This document shows positions 5,136 through 45,918 of a stretch of DNA of 64,000 bases, piece by piece; position 1 is the stretch's first letter; every line of letters starts with the position of its first letter. Below the pieces are notes generated by a model. It was not told where the DNA came from. It did not search any database and saw only the letters and a list, made by a program, of their open reading frames with translations. A program made the position numbers and the translations under genes. This DNA is from a phage. The DNA is taken from sequence record PZ179882.1, one strand, 5' to 3'.

Positions 5136-5363
5136 TTACTTAATGTTCAGATTACGAACTTCGATTTCGTCTTCATGGGCAAAATCAAACTGTTTGAATT
5201 CTGTGTCACCTTTAAATTTAAAAATCATTGTGAAGAAAGTCAGAACACCAGGTTTTTCTTCACGAACTCCACAGATATCATATTCAATACCATCTACAAC
5301 CAGTTTGTTAGCAGTCAGAGCATTTTTAGCTTTAACGATTTCGTTTTCGATTTTAAATTTCAT
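5136..5363 (-). CDS. Hypothetical protein, 75 aa
   Basis: ORF track; ATG at 5361-5363; preceded by early promoter (5413-5442) and terminator hairpin. Confidence 0.5.
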   Translation of the reverse strand: MKFKIENEIVKAKNALTANKLVVDGIEYDICGVREEKPGVLTFFTMIFKFKGDTEFKQFDFAHEDEIEVRNLNIK

Positions 5364-5412: not shown

Positions 5413-5442
5413 ATAGTACCACAGTATGCTTTGGTTGTAAAC
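5413..5442 (-). promoter_or_regulatory. Early promoter
   Basis: GTTTAC (5442-5437), 18-nt spacer, TGgTACTAT; just downstream of terminator hairpin; near-identical flanks to promoter at 62464-62493. Confidence 0.55.
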
Positions 5443-5463: not shown

Positions 5464-5493
5464 AAATAAAAAAGGGAGAGCCGAGGCTCTCCC
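5464..5493 (-). terminator. Rho-independent terminator
   Basis: Hairpin gggagagc-cgag-gctctccc followed on the minus strand by UUUUUUAUUU. Confidence 0.6.
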
Positions 5494-5498
5494 TAAAA

Positions 5499-5648
5499 TT
5501 ACTGCATGACTGTGATAACTGTCATGATAACACGTTGAATTCCGAACGCAAGAAGACCTCCTGCTACGGCAGGAACAACACCTAAACCCGCCAGTAAAAT
5601 TCCACCAGATACTAATGCAGCGCTTGTGATACCAATGAATGGACTCAT
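5499..5648 (-). CDS. Small hydrophobic membrane peptide (49 aa), not in ORF track
   Basis: Hand translation: MSPFIGITSAALVSGGILLAGLGVVPAVAGGLLAFGIQRVIMTVITVMQ; ATG 5646-5648 overlaps gene 52 stop (ATGA); ends just before terminator hairpin. Confidence 0.4.
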   Translation of the reverse strand: MSPFIGITSAALVSGGILLAGLGVVPAVAGGLLAFGIQRVIMTVITVMQ

Positions 5649-6973
5649 TTGATTTCCTCTAAATCTTTGGTGTATTCTGTAACTACATCAGTAGTTTTCC
5701 AATATTCGTTTTCTTCTTTTTTGGCTTTAGCTTCTTCAGCAAGTTTCTTTGCTTCGTCGGAAGTCATATGAAAAATGTTCATTCCAACTAGTTTATCAAC
5801 ATAAGAAGAATACATATCAATTTTAGAAAGTTCTTCGGTCAGTTCTTTGCGAGTTTTACCTTGTACAACAATTTCACCTGAAATTACTTTCTTAATGAAA
5901 TGTGCCTTGGCAAAAGCTAAACGAAATGCTGATTCAGTTTCTTTGATTTTGTTATCAATTCGTTTTTGGACATAAGTTTTACGAACTTCAACGAAGTCTT
6001 TGATTAAATCAACTACATTATCGTAAACTTGCAGCTTTCCTTTCTCATTAATGACGGTAATATTCTGGGAACGACGCTCAATCAACCCGAAGTCTTTCAT
6101 AATTTTTGCATGGCGTTCTTCTTCATTATCGCTCAAAGAGTATTCTTTTCGGAATTTAACTTTGAAGCCAAAGCCATGCTCACCACAAGCATCATCCCAT
6201 GTAATGAAGCCTTTATCTTCAAGCGGGTCTAAGATTTTACTCACATAAGTTTCACGATCATACTTATATGGAATCTCAGTGATATGCATTTGAGTTCGTG
6301 AAGTAAACTTATATGTTCCACGAATTTCATATTGCCCATCAATTTCAACGACTTCACCACGAAATTCTGGGAATTCTACCTTCGGTTTAGTTACTTTCTT
6401 TCCTTGAAGAGCTTGCAGTACAGCTTTCTTGACAGAAGAAACACTATGAGGAAGAATGTAAGTTGCATAACCAGTTGCAATACCGGAAACGCCATTAAGA
6501 AGAACAGTAGGAATAATAGGCAAATAGAAAGCAGGCGGAATGTGTTCTTTATCTTGATGTACTGGAGCATATTCAGTATCTTTATATACGTTATAGAAAT
6601 TTTTACTTACACGAGCAAAAATATAACGACTTGCTGCTGCCTTTTGGACAGTACGAGAACCAAAGTTTCCTTGACCGTCTAACAGAGGAAAGTTATTATT
6701 CCAAGTGTTAGCCATCAAAGCACCTGCGTCTTGCGCAGAGTTTTCACCGTGATGATATCCAAGGTCCGCTACACCGCCTGCGATAGAAGCGAGTTTGTGA
6801 AACTTATCTTTATTTCCTCGTGCCAAATCAAGAGCTCGAGCAATAACAAATCGTTGAACTGGCTTAAATCCGTCAATCATATTTGGAATGGCACGATTTT
6901 CAACCGTGTACATAGCATAAGCCAATGCTTCATTATCAATGATACTTTTTAAATCACGATTATTCAGTTGCAT
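5645..6973 (-). CDS. 52: DNA topoisomerase II medium subunit gp52 (GyrA-like)
   Basis: 442 aa, same length as T4 gp52; type II topoisomerase cleavage-domain motifs; ATG verified 6971-6973. Confidence 0.92.
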   Translation of the reverse strand: MQLNNRDLKSIIDNEALAYAMYTVENRAIPNMIDGFKPVQRFVIARALDLARGNKDKFHKLASIAGGVADLGYHHGENSAQDAGALMANTWNNNFPLLDGQGNFGSRTVQKAAASRYIFARVSKNFYNVYKDTEYAPVHQDKEHIPPAFYLPIIPTVLLNGVSGIATGYATYILPHSVSSVKKAVLQALQGKKVTKPKVEFPEFRGEVVEIDGQYEIRGTYKFTSRTQMHITEIPYKYDRETYVSKILDPLEDKGFITWDDACGEHGFGFKVKFRKEYSLSDNEEERHAKIMKDFGLIERRSQNITVINEKGKLQVYDNVVDLIKDFVEVRKTYVQKRIDNKIKETESAFRLAFAKAHFIKKVISGEIVVQGKTRKELTEELSKIDMYSSYVDKLVGMNIFHMTSDEAKKLAEEAKAKKEENEYWKTTDVVTEYTKDLEEIK

Positions 6974-7110
6974 AAATTTACCATACTAGTGAATGTAGTG
7001 CCATAATAACATCAGAAATGAAAAGCACGACTTGAATTAATCCGAACATTACTCCATAATATAGCGCTACCAATAAAGTAGCAAGGGCTAATGAATAGCC
7101 CAAGATTTTC

Positions 7111-7269
7111 TTAATCATTGGTAGATAACAACACAAATGTTAAATATGCACACATACCCTGGGCTAAAGCTTGTGAAAACACACTGCTAGCATCAATACA
7201 GATAGTTAAAACACATGCTACTATCCAACAAATAAATGAAATAACTCCTAATAGTTTCGCAATATTCAT
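7111..7269 (-). CDS. ac: Small membrane protein, Ac-like (acridine sensitivity)
   Basis: Hand-translated 52-aa hydrophobic ORF MNIAKLLGVISFICWIVACVLTICIDASSVFSQALAQGMCAYLTFVLLSTND between 52 and stp, as T4 ac; call by position, size and hydrophobicity. Confidence 0.55.
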   Translation of the reverse strand: MNIAKLLGVISFICWIVACVLTICIDASSVFSQALAQGMCAYLTFVLLSTND

Positions 7270-8201: not shown

Positions 8202-8420
8202 TCATTTTACACCATTCCAAATTGTTTCAACCACAGATTTTAAACCATTTTGATGAATATCAATTCCGACTACTGTCATCAAATAGATTCCAACTACAAC
8301 TGAACCTAAGGCAAAAATCAGCATGAAAATGAATAAAGCCGGAAAAATATTATCGAAAAACCACTCAATAAATGTAAAAGCACTGCGTTTACGCTTCATA
8401 TTTTCCTCACATAAATCCAA
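8202..8420 (-). CDS. Hypothetical membrane protein, 72 aa
   Basis: ORF track; strongly hydrophobic central segment. Confidence 0.45.
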   Translation of the reverse strand: MDLCEENMKRKRSAFTFIEWFFDNIFPALFIFMLIFALGSVVVGIYLMTVVGIDIHQNGLKSVVETIWNGVK

Positions 8421-8520
8421 AGTAAACGTTTAATACATCAATCATTAAAACGATTGGGAATATACTCAAAACTATTAGTATTATAACTACATTCCATATA
8501 GCTTTAACAATCTTTTTCAT
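8407..8520 (-). CDS. Small membrane peptide (~37 aa)
   Basis: Track ORF 8407..8655 would run through the promoter at 8549-8578; internal ATG 8518-8520 (MKKIVKAIWNVVIILIVLSIFPIVLMIDVLNVYFGFM) lies just downstream of predicted transcription start. Confidence 0.35.
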   Translation of the reverse strand: MKKIVKAIWNVVIILIVLSIFPIVLMIDVLNVYFGFM

Positions 8521-8523
8521 TTT

Positions 8524-8578
8524 CTGTTCTTCCGTAGTTGATAGTTGTATAGTACCACGGAAGAACAGTCTTGTAAAC
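8524..8578 (-). promoter_or_regulatory. Early promoter with 11-bp inverted repeat straddling the -10
   Basis: GTTTAC 8578-8573, TGgTACTAT 8557-8549; IR arms ctgttcttccg (8524-8534) and cggaagaacag (8558-8568). Confidence 0.55.
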
Positions 8579-34067: not shown

Positions 34068-34220
34068 TTAAACCTCAATTGATACATTCATATTTAACTT
34101 GTAACAGTAATAAACCCCAACCTAAAATAATAGTTGGAATCATAAGAGGAACCGTTACACTATAGTATATACTTATTATAATCATCAAGATTAAAAGCAA
34201 TGCTGTTATAATTTTGCTTT

Positions 34221-34472
34221 TCATTCCTTCTCTCTGATGATAATTACCTGATTTGGCTGCGCAGACTTTTTAGTTTCACCTGCAATTGACCAAATAAATG
34301 TAATAAACCAACCAATAATTGACCAGTTAAACAGCAAAGATGTGAAAAAGATTCCTACTGTCGATTTTGACCCACGCATCAAAGCAATAAACCATGGAAG
34401 CATGTATATAATAATAGCCAACACACCTGAAACTAAAACCATAAAAATTGAACCTGCTACTAAAGTTTCCAT
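34221..34472 (-). CDS. imm: Immunity protein Imm (superinfection exclusion, inner membrane)
   Basis: 83 aa, two TM segments, position between 42 and 43 as in T4. Confidence 0.75.
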   Translation of the reverse strand: METLVAGSIFMVLVSGVLAIIIYMLPWFIALMRGSKSTVGIFFTSLLFNWSIIGWFITFIWSIAGETKKSAQPNQVIIIREKE

Positions 34473-35287: not shown

Positions 35288-37984
35288 TCAGCCAAACAGG
35301 AAGTCTAACGAAGCTTTTTCTTCATAGTCCATGCCAGCCGATTCACACATACCCGCAAGCGGTTTAACAAACGATTTTTGGAACAAAGTTGAGTGGTCAA
35401 TCCAAGATAGCACATCAGAACGAATTTCTTTTGGAAGTTCTGTACCCGATGGCCAAGCAATGCACTTGTCACCAAATGGATTTCCTTCACGTAATGGAAG
35501 AACCATTACTTTATTTCCATCCAAAATTGGAGCTACACCCAGACCACTAACAGCTCGACGATAAGTTAGCACACCGCGAATATGGAACGGGCATTTAAAT
35601 CCTGGCCAACCTTTATCATCATATTTAGCTATATCGTTCGCAGTTTTTACTTCAGCAATAACTTTATAGTCAAGTTGACGATATTCTTTCTCGAAGTTCT
35701 TGTAATATTCTTGGACAGACTCTTCACCTTCCTGAAGAATACGACGAATACTTTCTTCGAGAGCTTCTTGCACTGCTTTTGGTGTTGAACTCTGCTGAGT
35801 TTCCATACCCATGATTTTTAGATGCGGTTCAGCAAATCGTTTATCTTCCATATCATAAACGTTCAGAGCATAACGCTTTTTCGCTTTCCAAAATCCACCA
35901 ACACCCTTTGAACCAAGTGGAGGGCAAGAAATAGCTTCACGGTCCATATGCATCAGATGCTCGCGGTTATTCATATAATCACATAACTCACGATATGCAA
36001 CATCAATCATAGGTTCCATCTTTTTCTTACCGAACTGATTCATGAATTCAACTAAATCGTTCTGCTCTTTGAATCGGTCAAGACCAACTTTTTCAATAAC
36101 TTTATCTACACAAACATATACCGAATCAGTATCACCTGCTGCAATGAAATCTTCGCCATTAGTTCCGCATACTTTATTCAGATATTCATTAATTTTACGA
36201 GCAATCCACTGAATACCAACTTGGCCGAAAATTGTGATAGCAGTAGCATTTCGCAAATCATAGTAACGGAAATGAATATTACCAAGAGCACCATAAAGAC
36301 TGTTAATAAGAATTTTACGGTTCAGCTGATTTGTATTAGCAAGTGTAGCTGCTTTTTCACATTCTTCAATCAAACTATTGAGAACAGATTCAGTATAATT
36401 CGATAGTTCATTTAAGAAATCATCACTGAACTTAACATATCGTTCAACTTCAGGTTTAGTTGAACAAGACCCTGCGCCTTTCATAATAATCTTTTTAATA
36501 GCTTCGGCATTCATTTCTTCAGCGAACATTTTCTTTTTCCAGTCTTTACGCTGGAAAAATACTTTAGCGATTTCCTTTGGAATGATACCTTCTTGATGCT
36601 TATCATACATCCATCCATTCGGAGAACAAGAATATTCATCACTCGGTTTAGGAGCTGTTCCTGCGATATATTCATGAATTGGATGAACTTTAAACTGACC
36701 ACGAATAGTCTCAGGACTAATGTTAACCTGACGAATAATGCTCGGATACAGAGACGTCAAGTCAAAACTCATAATATATCGACGAGCAATTGGTTTAGGT
36801 TCAAATACAAATGCACCTGGAAAACTCTGTTTAACGTGCGAACCTTGTTGAGGAATAACCTTATGTTCACCTTTCAATGAGTTAAAAATAATAGCATCCC
36901 AAGTTTTAATAGGACTCATTACACCGGAAAAAGGCATTTTAGCATAATAAGACATACTTAAAACTAGATCGATAAACCCGCGAATTTTATCAATTGCTTG
37001 AACTGATTCTACGTCAATGATGTTATAACTAATGTATCGTTGATGATTAGTCTCACGAAGTTTATTAATAGGACCGTCGTATGGTAATTTACCTTTTTTG
37101 GTTTCATGTTGAGCAACTGATTCCAAAGAGAATGATGGCAAATTAGTAAATGCGAATTTTTTGTACAAATCTAAATAATCAAGAATAGATACGCCATCAA
37201 TAGAATAAATTTCTTTGCTACCGTACATATTTTGAATTAGTTTAGATTTTACTCGACCGATTGGGGAGAAGCGTTTCATACTACGTTCACCGAGAACCAT
37301 TTTAACACGATTCATGATATACGGAACGTCAAATCCCTCAATATTCCAACCGGTAAAAATAGCAGGTCGTTTCTGTTCCCAGAGATTAATATATTCCATG
37401 AGCATATCACGCTCATTATCAAATGGCATATAAATTACTCGGTCAAGAATTTCTTGAGGAACTTCATCACCACCTTCACAGTCAAGCTTAGCAGCTAACT
37501 TTGCATCCCATTTTGATACTGAACCGTACATTGAATTCAAAAGGTCGAAAACATAAAAACGATCATCAATTGAATCGTAATGAGTGATAGCATCAATTTC
37601 ATATTCAGCTTTCATTGGGTCAGGAAATTTATCACCAGTAACCTCAATGTCACAGTTAGCTACACGAACAAATTTTCGGTCATAAACAATTTCTGAACCA
37701 TACGTATCACTGATATAAGCGAGTTTAAAATCGTTCATACCGAGAGCTTCGAGACCGATGTCTTCCATTCGCTTCATCCAATCTCGAGCATCTTTCATTG
37801 ATGGAAATTTTTGAGGAGCGCAGTTTTTACCGTAGATGTCTTTGTATTTTGACTCTTCCTTACAATGCCTAAACATAGTTGGAAGATATTCTACTTCACG
37901 AGTACGTTCCTTTCCGTTTTCATCAATATAACGTTCAACAATATTATTTCCGACTGTTTCGATAGAGATATAAAATTCTTTCAT
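35288..37984 (-). CDS. 43: DNA polymerase gp43 (family B)
   Basis: 898 aa as T4 gp43; exonuclease and polymerase motifs; ATG verified 37982-37984; terminator downstream. Confidence 0.95.
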   Translation of the reverse strand: MKEFYISIETVGNNIVERYIDENGKERTREVEYLPTMFRHCKEESKYKDIYGKNCAPQKFPSMKDARDWMKRMEDIGLEALGMNDFKLAYISDTYGSEIVYDRKFVRVANCDIEVTGDKFPDPMKAEYEIDAITHYDSIDDRFYVFDLLNSMYGSVSKWDAKLAAKLDCEGGDEVPQEILDRVIYMPFDNERDMLMEYINLWEQKRPAIFTGWNIEGFDVPYIMNRVKMVLGERSMKRFSPIGRVKSKLIQNMYGSKEIYSIDGVSILDYLDLYKKFAFTNLPSFSLESVAQHETKKGKLPYDGPINKLRETNHQRYISYNIIDVESVQAIDKIRGFIDLVLSMSYYAKMPFSGVMSPIKTWDAIIFNSLKGEHKVIPQQGSHVKQSFPGAFVFEPKPIARRYIMSFDLTSLYPSIIRQVNISPETIRGQFKVHPIHEYIAGTAPKPSDEYSCSPNGWMYDKHQEGIIPKEIAKVFFQRKDWKKKMFAEEMNAEAIKKIIMKGAGSCSTKPEVERYVKFSDDFLNELSNYTESVLNSLIEECEKAATLANTNQLNRKILINSLYGALGNIHFRYYDLRNATAITIFGQVGIQWIARKINEYLNKVCGTNGEDFIAAGDTDSVYVCVDKVIEKVGLDRFKEQNDLVEFMNQFGKKKMEPMIDVAYRELCDYMNNREHLMHMDREAISCPPLGSKGVGGFWKAKKRYALNVYDMEDKRFAEPHLKIMGMETQQSSTPKAVQEALEESIRRILQEGEESVQEYYKNFEKEYRQLDYKVIAEVKTANDIAKYDDKGWPGFKCPFHIRGVLTYRRAVSGLGVAPILDGNKVMVLPLREGNPFGDKCIAWPSGTELPKEIRSDVLSWIDHSTLFQKSFVKPLAGMCESAGMDYEEKASLDFLFG

Positions 37985-43336: not shown

Positions 43337-43523
43337 TATCTAAAATGTTGAAGTTAAAAGATACAGCCCAGTCAGTGCAGACTGTAACCTTTTTAATACA
43401 ATTATCTTCAACCTCTAGCGGTTCAAACCAATATTCAATAATTTCTTTATGCCCAATATCATCTTTTACTTCGCATTCAAAATGCTGACTCATCATAACA
43501 TTTTTAAATTCATCAAAAGTCAT
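43260..43523 (-). CDS. Hypothetical protein (46.2-like), 87 aa
   Basis: ORF track; ATGA coupling with gene 47. Confidence 0.45.
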   Translation of the reverse strand: MTFDEFKNVMMSQHFECEVKDDIGHKEIIEYWFEPLEVEDNCIKKVTVCTDWAVSFNFNILDNDTPKSLQDMAVSCIKDAYCEVFDI

Positions 43524-44539
43524 TGTGTTGCCTCTACATATAACTGATTTGCATATTGAATAAGTGCTTCACGGTCAGAATCAGTGATGTCTGGAATTGC
43601 ATTAATGTATTCTTCCATCAACGTCTGAAGAGATTGAACTTCAACTTCTTCACTGTCATCTGACTCGACAGAGTTATCAATCTTTGACACAACTCGTAAT
43701 GAATGCACAACTTTTTCTAGTTCAGATTCGAACTTCGTTAGATTTTTGTCTACTTCAGTTACTATAACACGTACTGATAGATTTGTAAAATCTTTATAGT
43801 CAATTTTTCCTTTAAATGGATAATGAATTCTACGATGCCAGGTAGTGTTGTTTGGAATAAATTCCATTCGTTCTGTTTCTGTATCAAACATCCAGAACCC
43901 ACGAGGGTCATTCTCGTCACCTGCAGTTAGTGTCCATGGTGTCCCAATATATCTGACGTTAGCAGCCTCAGAGATAGTATGGAAGTGACCAGACCACACC
44001 TCTTTATAAGTCTTAAGGAAATCAGGTTCAAGACCGTGAGATTTCATTCCTTTATAAAAATAAAATCCATTCAGCTCCCAGTGACCGACACAAAAAGAAG
44101 CAGATGAAGTTTTGATGTGTTCAAGAATTTCACCAGTATTTTCTTCACACATCCAAGGAATTAAATCAATCAAACATCCGTCAAAATCTACTGTAGTAGG
44201 CTTATCATATACTTTAACATTAGGATATTTAGCCAAAAGTTCAGTAGAAGCATTTGGAGTTAAAGTATTTTTAAAGTGCATATCATGGTTTCCTACAACA
44301 GTATGTAGGGTAATACCAGCATCATCAAGCATTTGAACTATTTCACGAGCGAACTCCATAGTTTTATGTGTGATTGCTTTTCGCACATCAAAAATATCGC
44401 CATATTGAATCCATGTAGTAATTCCATTTTTCTTAGAATATTCTATTGCTTGTTTAATTCCATCCAACTGAATGGATTGAACCCACTCATCATCGGCTTT
44501 AACACCTAAATGCCAATCACCTAAATTTAAAATTTTCAT
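43520..44539 (-). CDS. 47: Recombination endonuclease subunit gp47 (Mre11/SbcD-like)
   Basis: 339 aa as T4 gp47; phosphoesterase motifs GDWH, GNHD; ATG verified. Confidence 0.92.
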   Translation of the reverse strand: MKILNLGDWHLGVKADDEWVQSIQLDGIKQAIEYSKKNGITTWIQYGDIFDVRKAITHKTMEFAREIVQMLDDAGITLHTVVGNHDMHFKNTLTPNASTELLAKYPNVKVYDKPTTVDFDGCLIDLIPWMCEENTGEILEHIKTSSASFCVGHWELNGFYFYKGMKSHGLEPDFLKTYKEVWSGHFHTISEAANVRYIGTPWTLTAGDENDPRGFWMFDTETERMEFIPNNTTWHRRIHYPFKGKIDYKDFTNLSVRVIVTEVDKNLTKFESELEKVVHSLRVVSKIDNSVESDDSEEVEVQSLQTLMEEYINAIPDITDSDREALIQYANQLYVEATQ

Positions 44540-44676
44540 ATATCAAGAACCGTCATTGAAATGCAAAATAAAATTATTGAAATAAATCCATCTGGAGTAC
44601 TAAAGAATCCAATCCAACATGCTCTAGTGAATAGATAAAACGCTAGAAAAAGTATCACATATCCAAGAAATATCAT
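44536..44676 (-). CDS. Small hydrophobic membrane peptide (46 aa), not in ORF track
   Basis: Hand translation MIFLGYVILFLAFYLFTRACWIGFFSTPDGFISIILFCISMTVLDI; stop TGA overlaps gene 47 ATG (ATGA). Confidence 0.4.
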   Translation of the reverse strand: MIFLGYVILFLAFYLFTRACWIGFFSTPDGFISIILFCISMTVLDI

Positions 44677-44699
44677 TATATCAAACTCCGTATAAAGCT

Positions 44700-44717
44700 A
44701 AAGGGCCGAAGCCCTTT
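44700..44717 (-). other. C(UUCG)G-type hairpin at alpha-gt stop
   Basis: aaagggc-cgaa-gcccttt. Confidence 0.5.
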
Positions 44718-45918
44718 ATTTTGTAATAATGTCAAACTGTTCTTTAAAGCAGAAGCTTGAATCTTGATGCTGATACAAAAATTCATAAGCTTTTTCGCGT
44801 TCGCGATCATAAAGAGCTCGGTCAGATGACAGTTCTTTAATACGTTCAAATGTTGATTCCATGTCATTTTCATCAAACCAAACGATACCGCTATCGTGTG
44901 AAATTAATGGAGTATTATCAACACGGAATTTTAAATTTTCGCCAGTAGATTTCCAAAATACTGGAATTGTTCCACATGCACCAAGCTCGAGATGAGTGTA
45001 TTCTAAAGAACGCTGTAGATATTTTTTGTCCAACTTACTCAGCTGATAACCAAATCCGGATTTACTCATGCGTTCAAGCATTTCGCTATTTACATAACGG
45101 TCGAGAATTTGCGTTGGCAAATTAGGAGCAATTTTAATTTGGTCTACTTGATGAAGACGATAATACTCGTATGGAATTCCTTTTTCTTTAATAGGAATGA
45201 ATGCTGGAGAACGTTCCAGACCTTCCATAATAGTACTTAGTCCTGCAGGTTTAAGATGTTTTTCATGAAAATCAAACATCTGATAAAAGCCTTTCCATGT
45301 AGTAGTACGACCAATCCAACGGTTGATATTCATGTTAATTTCAGAAACATCTTTCCAGTAGGTTGATCGAACCTTCGCAATATCCATAGGAGGCTGAAAG
45401 TTATATACGGTCGGTGCTTCTTCAATATCATCAAACAGAGAAACAGTTTCCGGATACCATTCTTTCATCAAAACTTTATTAAAGTCACCATTATCAGAAT
45501 GGCTAAAAATAACATCAGCTCGACGAACAGTTTCTTCTAATCCCAAATTTCGACGCAAAGAAAGAGAAGAATGGTCATGCTGATAAACTACAACACGAAC
45601 CGAAGGTTTAATGTTATCAATAATTTTTTTATAGTTATTAATGGTGTCTTCTTCTACTGAAGTAGCAGGAACTGAATTGATAATTAAAATATCGCAATCA
45701 TTTACCAGTTTAAGTGTTTTATCGTATTCTTTTGCCAATAAAACCGGAATTGAAAATGACTTATAATCATGTGCGCAATTACGAGTAAATGATTTATCTT
45801 TAGCATAAACCAAAGTTACTTCATGACCATTTTTAATAAACCAATCACGTTGCTCAAGAGAAAATTTAGTTACACCGCAACCTTCAAGACCTCGAGCCAT
45901 AAAAATACATACTTTCAT
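44716..45918 (-). CDS. agt: DNA alpha-glucosyltransferase
   Basis: 400 aa; ICIFMARGLEGCGVTKFSLEQRDWFIKNGHEVTLVYAKDKSFTR and C-terminus ...SSFCFKEQFDIITK match remembered T4 alpha-gt. Confidence 0.92.
   Translation of the reverse strand: MKVCIFMARGLEGCGVTKFSLEQRDWFIKNGHEVTLVYAKDKSFTRNCAHDYKSFSIPVLLAKEYDKTLKLVNDCDILIINSVPATSVEEDTINNYKKIIDNIKPSVRVVVYQHDHSSLSLRRNLGLEETVRRADVIFSHSDNGDFNKVLMKEWYPETVSLFDDIEEAPTVYNFQPPMDIAKVRSTYWKDVSEINMNINRWIGRTTTWKGFYQMFDFHEKHLKPAGLSTIMEGLERSPAFIPIKEKGIPYEYYRLHQVDQIKIAPNLPTQILDRYVNSEMLERMSKSGFGYQLSKLDKKYLQRSLEYTHLELGACGTIPVFWKSTGENLKFRVDNTPLISHDSGIVWFDENDMESTFERIKELSSDRALYDREREKAYEFLYQHQDSSFCFKEQFDIITK

Follow-up and report, generated by a model that had tools for sequence, protein, structure and literature searches.

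Hydrophobic micro-proteins MotA.1, gp47.1 and Ndd.4 of a T4-like phage: conserved genes already annotated in T4, two of them overlapping core genes

Introduction

In a 64,000-nucleotide stretch of phage DNA (sequence record PZ179882.1; the whole stretch is referred to here as the window), a short open reading frame at 5499..5648 on the minus strand opens on the stop codon of gene 52 and encodes a chain that is hydrophobic throughout. The locus raises the question of whether such a frame is a gene, whether it was already known, and what its junction with a core gene says about its expression and its role. The initial annotation had set it beside two frames of the same kind, at 44536..44676 and 8407..8520, and described all three as unannotated hydrophobic micro-proteins translationally coupled to core replication and recombination genes. 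Proteins of this size are familiar both as small inner-membrane regulators of Escherichia coli (AcrZ, 49 aa; MgrB, 47 aa; KdpF, 29 aa) and as small membrane proteins of T4 (Ac, 51 aa; gp52.1, 46 aa; Imm). The three frames resemble these in size and in having one or two hydrophobic helices, and the established examples, too, often belong to operons in which starts and stops overlap or adjoin. The bacterial regulators show no sequence relationship to the products of the three frames, and the likeness is one of analogy only.

Results

motA.1 between the gene 52 stop and a terminator

Gene order and database matches identify the genome in the window as that of a Tequatrovirus (T4-like). The 4.8-kb stretch around 5499..5648 is matched by 916 phage records, the best of which are Tequatrovirus genomes at 96–98% identity, and the T4 gene order is kept both here (motA, gene 52, 52.1, ac, stp, ndd, the ndd.1–ndd.6 run and denB) and near 44536..44676 (a-gt, 47, 46.2, 46.1), with all genes at both sites on the minus strand of the window. 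The three frames are present at the coordinates first given; all lie on the minus strand, encode 49, 46 and 37 aa, respectively, and are hydrophobic, with GRAVY values of 1.61, 1.73 and 1.87 in our own Kyte-Doolittle calculation.

The frame at 5499..5648 is the orthologue of T4 motA.1. It runs from an ATG to a TAA and encodes a Gly/Ala/Val-rich protein of 49 aa (MSPFIGITSAALVSGGILLAGLGVVPAVAGGLLAFGIQRVIMTVITVMQ) containing eight glycines, six alanines, seven valines and a single charged residue. The ATG (5648-5646) overlaps the TGA (5647-5645) of gene 52, which encodes the topoisomerase II medium subunit (5645..6973, minus strand), in the arrangement ATGA, and a Shine-Dalgarno GAGG at 5656..5659 (minus strand) lies within the final gene 52 codons, 7 nt before the ATG; this GAGG, or GGAGG, is retained in relatives. 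An intrinsic terminator with a 9-bp stem, six GC pairs and a T-run begins 4 nt past the TAA (5473..5494, minus strand) and is annotated as such in phage G9062. On the other flank of gene 52 is the orthologue of 52.1 (6978..7118, minus strand), which encodes a 46-aa hydrophobic protein and stops 4 nt before the gene 52 start. The GC content of motA.1 is 44.7% compared with 34.7% for the window, a rise that results from its Gly and Ala codons.

AlphaFold2, run with a shallow family alignment, models MotA.1 as a single continuous helix over residues 3–48 (pLDDT 86.5), a 46-residue helix that does not separate a single-pass helix from a hairpin. Small residues recur at small-xxx-small spacing (G16xxxA20 and G23xxxA27xxxG31), and residues G15, G23, A27, G30, G31, A34 and G36 are invariant in the family. 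Read as a pattern, this spacing is compatible with helix-helix packing; a Pfam scan of MotA.1 matched no glycine-zipper model. A reading as a Sec signal peptide or lipoprotein was dropped, as the chain has neither a basic N-region nor a Cys lipobox. Because the whole chain is hydrophobic, with no charged N-region and no Cys lipobox, we consider MotA.1 more likely to be an integral membrane protein than the "predicted periplasmic protein" of the T4 label.

The three genes in T4 and in databases

The description of the frames as unannotated was wrong. All three genes are already known and annotated in T4 (motA.1, NP_049874.1; 47.1, NP_813808.1; ndd.4, NP_049884.1) and are represented in PHROGs and, for MotA.1, by PF26886; the chief value of the present check is thus a negative one, in that the "unannotated" flag is to be dropped. 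T4 MotA.1 (UniProt P39512, Y16H_BPT4) likewise has 49 aa and is one residue apart from the window protein (G16 versus S16; 98% identical). Its gene (163730..163879, "hypothetical predicted periplasmic protein") is placed identically, sharing 4 nt (ATGA) with the end of gene 52 and being followed directly by the same terminator. In the window, full-length PHROG matches were obtained for MotA.1 (phrog_3487, E = 7e-31, residues 1–49 of 49), gp47.1 (phrog_6693, E = 1.5e-31, residues 1–46) and Ndd.4 (phrog_3098, E = 2.9e-21), and each gene is found in its T4 context, MotA.1 3' of gene 52, 47.1 5' of gene 47 and ndd.4 in the ndd-denB cluster.

The Pfam label PF26886, "Phage_T4_Y16H", appears on database homologues of MotA.1 in precomputed tables. 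Our own Pfam-A scan of the three peptides returned no family even at E ≤ 10, for MotA.1 probably because the PF26886 model was absent or the hit was composition-filtered, and an NCBIfam scan of the three gave a sole line, EdmS at E = 2, which is noise. A word-indexed search of 5.8 billion proteins with MotA.1 recovered only copies at least 82% identical. Searching 1.84 billion representative proteins with a profile HMM of the MotA.1 alignment gave four matches at E ≤ 0.001, namely one member of the Tequatrovirus family, two 49-aa homologues and one 37-aa protein, and no sign of a wider family. The two 49-aa homologues share ~45–50% identical residues with MotA.1, and each starts on the stop of a gene 52 homologue. 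Homologues of 47.1 are confined to T-even-like phages. We considered relationships to bacterial type I toxins, AcrZ-like regulators and bacteriocins and dropped them, as they have no sequence support.

Database entries for these genes are uneven. Many automated GenBank records omit 47.1 or ndd.4; copies of motA.1 are misnamed "flagellar motor protein MotA", "transcriptional regulator" or "topoisomerase", and copies of ndd.4 "naphthalene 1,2-dioxygenase".

Signs of purifying selection on the three frames

Hydrophobicity of this degree is not beyond chance, as a GRAVY of at least 1.6 is reached by 10 of 200 ATG-initiated ORFs of 30–60 aa in the six frames of the window, several of them in off-frames of larger genes; the case for real genes therefore rests on conservation. 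The initial annotation had named interruption or loss of the frames in close relatives as the finding that would speak against them, and the opposite was observed: by tblastn, the frames are intact in 459 (motA.1), 602 (47.1) and 597 (ndd.4) phage records. At a coverage of at least 80%, motA.1 DNA is found in 494 records, which is also the number with a gp52 of Tequatrovirus type.

Substitution patterns were analysed as Nei-Gojobori counts with our own script. For motA.1, omega is 0.09–0.15 among Tequatroviruses and 0.18–0.36 against the two metagenomic 49-aa homologues, and for this type within the Kanagawavirus branch pS is 0.76 versus a pN of 0.13. When the motA.1 frame is shifted, omega always exceeds 1.3 at +2 and is 0.85–2.7 at +1, except in four saturated pairs (0.39–0.59). 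The values for 47.1 range from 0.07 to 0.40. Comparison of ndd.4 between the window and Gaprivervirus SP18 gives a pS of 0.71 and a pN of 0.23, compared with 0.32/0.32 and 0.18/0.38 in the shifted frames. The antisense frame that shares wobble positions also shows pS above pN, an expected artefact, and was excluded as an independent control. Given frames kept in hundreds of records, purifying selection in the ORF frame and the composition of motA.1, we conclude on these comparative grounds that all three ORFs are genuine protein-coding genes under purifying selection.

A micro-protein slot on the gene 52 stop

The region following gene 52 was surveyed in 10 GenBank phages of different genera and 23 IMG/VR contigs, lineages that are not phylogenetically independent. 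In most of the Tevenvirinae lineages sampled, a hydrophobic ORF starts on or beside the gene 52 stop (ATGA, TTGA or TAATG), is preceded by GGAG(G) within the final gene 52 codons and stops a few nt short of a terminator hairpin; nearly all relatives have such a hairpin after the micro-ORF. Lineages with an ORF in this slot comprise Tequatro-, Kanagawa-, Mosig-, Dhaka-, Gapriver- and Moonviruses together with Klebsiella-phage-like genomes. What fills the slot falls into at least five sequence types of 22–49 aa: the 49-aa MotA.1 type in Tequatrovirus and Kanagawavirus, a 26-aa peptide with a TTG start in Mosigvirus (MSALALGFLGAIAALVIWLYWLDKHD), a 34-aa peptide in Dhakavirus (MSLGVEFLLLCIFAVILGLATGLAIGLIAAHFKK), variants of 29–32 aa in Gaprivervirus, a 46-aa peptide in Moonvirus and peptides of 22–26 aa in several Klebsiella-phage-like genomes. 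Two tandem slot ORFs, each joined by ATGA, are present in PEi26 and in the metagenomic contig L005, and the Mosigvirus peptide resembles the second of these.

The types other than MotA.1 are also under purifying selection (for the Dhakavirus type, pS 0.36 versus pN 0.03). In this survey, Acinetobacter phage Ac42 and Aeromonas phage 31 had nothing in the slot, and JSE and a Vibrio phage have an ordinary hydrophilic gene there. The 46-aa membrane protein gp52.1, encoded before gene 52, is found at the same position in every Tevenvirinae sampled and is conserved far more than the peptide encoded after it. Across T-even-like phages, the gene 52 stop thus marks a conserved position at which membrane micro-proteins that evolve fast are encoded. 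In the GenBank records of IME08, ST2 and Lion_ER11, slot ORFs are unannotated or are placed on the wrong strand.

47.1 and the start of gene 47

The orthologue of 47.1 (44536..44676, minus strand; ATG start, TGA stop) encodes a predicted two-helix membrane hairpin of 46 aa (MIFLGYVILFLAFYLFTRACWIGFFSTPDGFISIILFCISMTVLDI; three charged residues). T4 gp47.1, also of 46 aa, shows no residue differences, its upstream region is identical, and its gene (36444..36584, "hypothetical predicted membrane protein") likewise overlaps gene 47 by 4 nt, its stop lying over the gene 47 ATG. In the window, the TGA (44538-44536) overlaps the ATG (44539-44537) of gene 47, which encodes an Mre11/SbcD-like nuclease subunit (43520..44539, minus strand), so that both of the ATGA junctions first described, at gene 52 and at gene 47, are present. 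ATGA junctions are classically associated with translational coupling. Such an overlap is not peculiar to micro-proteins: in the two T4 stretches inspected, ATGA-type start/stop overlaps occur at 7 junctions, or at 10 when 1-nt and 8-nt overlaps are included.

AlphaFold2, again with a shallow family alignment, models gp47.1 as a helical hairpin with helices at residues 2–22 and 28–43 (pLDDT 79.6). The core RACW[IV]GFFSTPDGFIS is invariant across genera and, in this model, runs from the last part of helix 1 through the turn into helix 2.

A Shine-Dalgarno GGAG of 47.1 lies at 44686..44689 (minus strand), 9 nt before its ATG, and gene 47 is without a GAGG or GGAG of its own upstream (…acggttcttgatatATG). 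As regards an independent ribosome-binding site, the two junctions thus differ, since motA.1 has its own GAGG at 7 nt. Among 32 loci with a gene 47 homologue, 47.1 is present at 14; in all 14, GAGG and GGAG are absent from the 20 nt before the gene 47 ATG and 47.1 itself has a strong Shine-Dalgarno sequence, whereas 12 of the 18 loci without 47.1 have GAGG or AAGG 4–8 nt before gene 47. One clade contains both states. L049 carries 47.1 and L051 and L053 do not; the flanking sequences can be aligned, and the two states differ by precisely one 144-nt indel running from ATG to ATG, such that GAGGAGAGTAT, with its GAGGAG Shine-Dalgarno sequence, precedes 47.1 in L049 and gene 47 directly in L051 and L053. 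As gene 47 is without GAGG or GGAG in the carriers, and one Shine-Dalgarno sequence serves whichever ORF comes first, a hand-over of ribosomes from 47.1 to gene 47 has good comparative support. The gp47 of the carrier is 90% identical to that of the non-carriers in this clade, and so clean an absence of 47.1 at this identity indicates that gp47 does not need gp47.1.

Between a-gt and 47.1 lies a GC-rich hairpin (44699..44718). On the minus strand its tail amounts to no more than AGCTTTAT, and we therefore read it as a weak terminator or an RNA-stability hairpin. Behind it, T4 and the window have a near-MotA-box with one mismatch, TAGCTTTA-12-TATAAT, whose -10 overlaps the 47.1 ATG. Were this putative element active, its transcripts would have their 5' ends within 47.1, leaving gene 47 to initiate by itself. 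Unlike T4 and the window, the Dhaka- and Gapriverviruses, in which gp47.1 has 47 aa, have a clear consensus MotA-box middle promoter, TTGCTTTA-12-TAAAAT, upstream of the 47.1 Shine-Dalgarno sequence.

ndd.4 behind an early-type promoter-like site

The ndd.4 orthologue (8407..8520, minus strand; ATG start) encodes a predicted single-pass membrane protein of exactly 37 aa (MKKIVKAIWNVVIILIVLSIFPIVLMIDVLNVYFGFM) with four charged residues. Like motA.1 and 47.1, the gene has a Shine-Dalgarno sequence. Its basic N-terminus, MKKIVK, followed by one hydrophobic helix, suggests an N-in topology. T4 Ndd.4 (NP_049884.1; UniProt P39249) is alike in sequence except for V5/I5, and its gene is located likewise in the ndd.6–ndd.1 run. 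The T4 annotation gives 42 aa from an upstream ATG ("predicted inner membrane"). That codon is ACG in the window, G9062 annotates the gene from the MKK... start, and in SP18 a GGAG precedes that same start; for these reasons the true start is probably that of the 37-aa form.

Coupling to a core gene, which had been proposed for all three frames, thus stands in part. It is consistent with the ATGA architecture of motA.1 with gene 52 and of 47.1 with gene 47, and with the Shine-Dalgarno pattern at gene 47, and does not extend to ndd.4. Just upstream, this gene has its own site resembling an early-type sigma-70 promoter (TTTACA-17-TACTAT with TG; 8549..8577, minus strand; a consensus match only), behind which it is the first ORF, and it lies within a run of small hydrophobic ORFs.

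Discussion

Published T4 data bear on both the expression of these genes and their importance. In a time-resolved transcriptome and proteome study (PMC9697503), Table S2 places motA.1, 47.1, 52.1 and ndd.4 in the early transcript class and gives their protein class as "none", and the text cites the 5-kDa P39249 (Ndd.4) as having been missed owing to its size. A genome-wide CRISPRi-ART screen of T4 (PMC11879866) gave scores of -0.09 for motA.1, -0.69 for 47.1 and -0.84 for ndd.4, all "Not Fit", as was 52.1, compared with 2.17 ("Fit") for gene 52 and 0.83 ("Semi-Fit") for gene 47, and its authors report no major polar effects upon downstream essential genes. By these "Not Fit" scores, the peptides are dispensable on a laboratory host. 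Since knockdown at the 47.1 start gave no gene-47-like defect, either obligatory coupling in T4 is unlikely or a Semi-Fit gene lies beyond the sensitivity of the assay. A literature search on motA.1, 47.1 and the small membrane proteins of T4 found no functional study.

We think it likely that the products of motA.1, 47.1 and ndd.4 are accessory inner-membrane micro-proteins that ride on the expression signals of neighbouring genes. Most likely, these hydrophobic products of 37–49 residues would insert into the host inner membrane early in infection. Their genes may be regarded as passengers, slotted ATG-to-ATG or stop-to-terminator at points where a core neighbour would ensure both transcription and a supply of ribosomes. 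With the gene 52 stop before it and the operon terminator behind it, motA.1 would be translated by ribosomes that terminate on gene 52 and re-start. Placed between the gene 47 Shine-Dalgarno sequence and the gene 47 ATG, 47.1 has the only good ribosome-binding site before gene 47, and ribosomes terminating on 47.1 would re-start on gene 47. For ndd.4, the corresponding signal would be its own early promoter-like site, at the head of a run of similar ORFs. The peptides probably act on the cell envelope, and our guess, drawn from the analogy with other small membrane proteins of T4, is that they would, for example, affect permeability, exclude other phages, or modulate a defence or membrane protein of the host; action on the topoisomerase or on the Mre11/Rad50-type nuclease is probably not their role. 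In 47.1, nature provides a clean case of a micro-gene fitted exactly into the gap that separates a core gene's ribosome-binding site from its start codon, and the three genes are well-defined candidates for studying the many small early membrane proteins of T4. They also illustrate that genes for proteins of fewer than 50 aa under true selection are routinely missed or misnamed by automated phage annotation.

A counterpoint to passenger status is that a small hydrophobic ORF after gene 52, together with the conserved 52.1 before it, could mean a link to gp52. The peptides might then be partners of the proteins encoded beside them, MotA.1 (with gp52.1) and gp47.1 tethering the topoisomerase and the gp46/47 nuclease as inner-membrane anchors or assembly factors, in a stoichiometry set by coupling. 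The tight start/stop overlaps with genes 52 and 47, the presence of small membrane-protein genes on both flanks of gene 52 in the Tevenvirinae sampled, and the invariant 15-residue loop motif of gp47.1, which suggests a specific interaction, would all suit such an arrangement. In work of the 1970s, gp39 and gp52 were reportedly found in membrane fractions. The title of Mickelson and Wiberg (1981), as it appears in the reference list of PMC3016280, refers to a membrane-associated gp46/47-dependent DNase. Nevertheless, we judge a partnership of this kind to be unlikely: 47.1 is missing from many phages that have gene 47, including one with a 90% identical gp47; the slot peptide is swapped for unrecognisably dissimilar types, or is absent, in other genera while gp52 is conserved; and motA.1, 52.1 and 47.1 are "Not Fit" where gene 52 is "Fit" and gene 47 "Semi-Fit" (PMC11879866). 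The more specific proposal that gp52.1, the peptide of the MotA.1 slot and gp47.1 are co-translationally delivered anchors that hold the gp46/47 nuclease and the topoisomerase at the inner membrane seems to us very unlikely; if true, it would account in molecular terms for old reports that T4 replication and recombination activities associate with the membrane.

The act of translation, and not the product, might instead be what matters, with 47.1 a leader that loads ribosomes on a gene 47 devoid of its own Shine-Dalgarno sequence, and translation of motA.1 taking ribosomes as far as the terminator hairpin, where they would protect the gene 52 mRNA at its 3' end or shape that end. That gene 47 is without its own GAGG or GGAG wherever 47.1 is present would be expected of a leader, and the slot ORF stops a few nt before the terminator stem in almost every lineage, whatever its sequence. 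A role in translation only is, however, contradicted by selection on the amino-acid sequences, which is strong and purifying (omega 0.07–0.4) and includes the invariant core of gp47.1; moreover, hydrophobicity is kept across unrecognisably dissimilar sequence types, knockdown at the 47.1 start gave no gene 47 phenotype (PMC11879866), and the idea is inapplicable to ndd.4, so that we hold it to be quite unlikely. That the frames are chance ORFs in AT-rich spacers, propagated by annotation and untranslated, is in our estimation extremely improbable. No peptide was recorded by mass spectrometry (PMC9697503) and hydrophobic ORFs of 30–60 aa also arise by chance in the window, but frame, length, start, stop and Shine-Dalgarno sequence are kept in hundreds of genomes, across genera whose synonymous divergence is saturated, and motA.1 departs in composition from the genome at large.

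Micro-ORFs Surrounding Gene 52

In some relatives a second hydrophobic ORF, of 26 aa, is attached via a further ATGA to the 49-aa ORF motA.1, which itself starts on the stop codon of gene 52. The loci listed for this shorter ORF are L005 (266..346), L008 (1737..1817), and that of phage ST2 (L006, 1600..1680). The Mosigviruses retain the second type alone, and here a TTG start lies on the gene 52 stop. The pattern suggests that the micro-ORFs are gained and lost as modules through exact start-to-start deletions. The hydrophobic micro-ORFs coupled to gene 52 are absent from the GenBank annotation of IME08 (L007, 1600..1704), Lion_ER11 (L010, 1603..1674), and ST2, where a spurious ORF on the opposite strand is annotated in place of the micro-ORF.

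On the other side of gene 52, the 46-aa gp52.1 (6978..7118, minus strand; motif YYGV.FGLI..VLFISDVI....SL.W) is found 1–8 nt upstream of the gene in all Tevenvirinae sampled, including loci L006–L012, and in this sample is conserved far above the peptide 3′ of gene 52. A further ORF of this group lies at 7111..7269 (minus strand). Given gp52.1, ac, and stp, gene 52 sits within a string of genes for micro-membrane proteins.

Between the motA.1 terminator and motA is a 75-aa ORF (5136..5363, minus strand), for which an early-type promoter-like site (TTTACA-17-TACTAT with TG) was found at 5441..5413 on the same strand. T4 has no gene at this place, only a 127-nt gap, whereas G9062 carries an annotated counterpart, the hypothetical G9062_00273; the ORF looks like a lineage-variable insertion. 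Elsewhere in the window, the small-ORF scan revealed another hydrophobic 49-aa ATG-ORF, MKSKIITALLLILMIIISIYYSVTVPLMIPTIILGWGLLLLQVKYECIN, at 34075..34224 (minus strand; GRAVY 1.52).

The a-gt/47 Junction

In some T4-like contigs (L060, L063, and L068) the position of 47.1 is occupied by an ORF of 205–251 aa that overlaps the start of gene 47. From the N-terminus alone (MKYITYLTIYSGTKLPPFYIGST...), its putative product may resemble a homing endonuclease, in which case the a-gt/47 junction would be an insertion hot-spot.

Gene Models in the ndd Region

The uninterrupted hydrophobic 65-aa ORF at 8202..8399 (minus strand; MKRKRSAFTF...ETIWNGVK) has the same single form in G9062 but matches two separate annotations in T4, ndd.3 (26 aa) and ndd.2a (40 aa), so the T4 reference is probably either frameshifted here or split by annotation. 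T4 Ndd.4 is annotated as 42 aa from an ATG upstream of the MKK... start. In the stretch concerned (8521..8535, minus strand; T4 166750..166764) the window has ACG in place of this ATG, the G9062 annotation begins at MKK..., and the position of GGAG in SP18 suits that same start; together these indicate that the T4 start was probably mis-called.

Public annotation of MotA.1 and Ndd.4 homologues contains name-propagation errors. Among the GenBank records matched, MotA.1 homologues are misnamed "flagellar motor protein MotA," "transcriptional regulator," or "topoisomerase," with Shigella flexneri given as the organism for one copy, and Ndd.4 homologues are labeled "naphthalene 1,2-dioxygenase."
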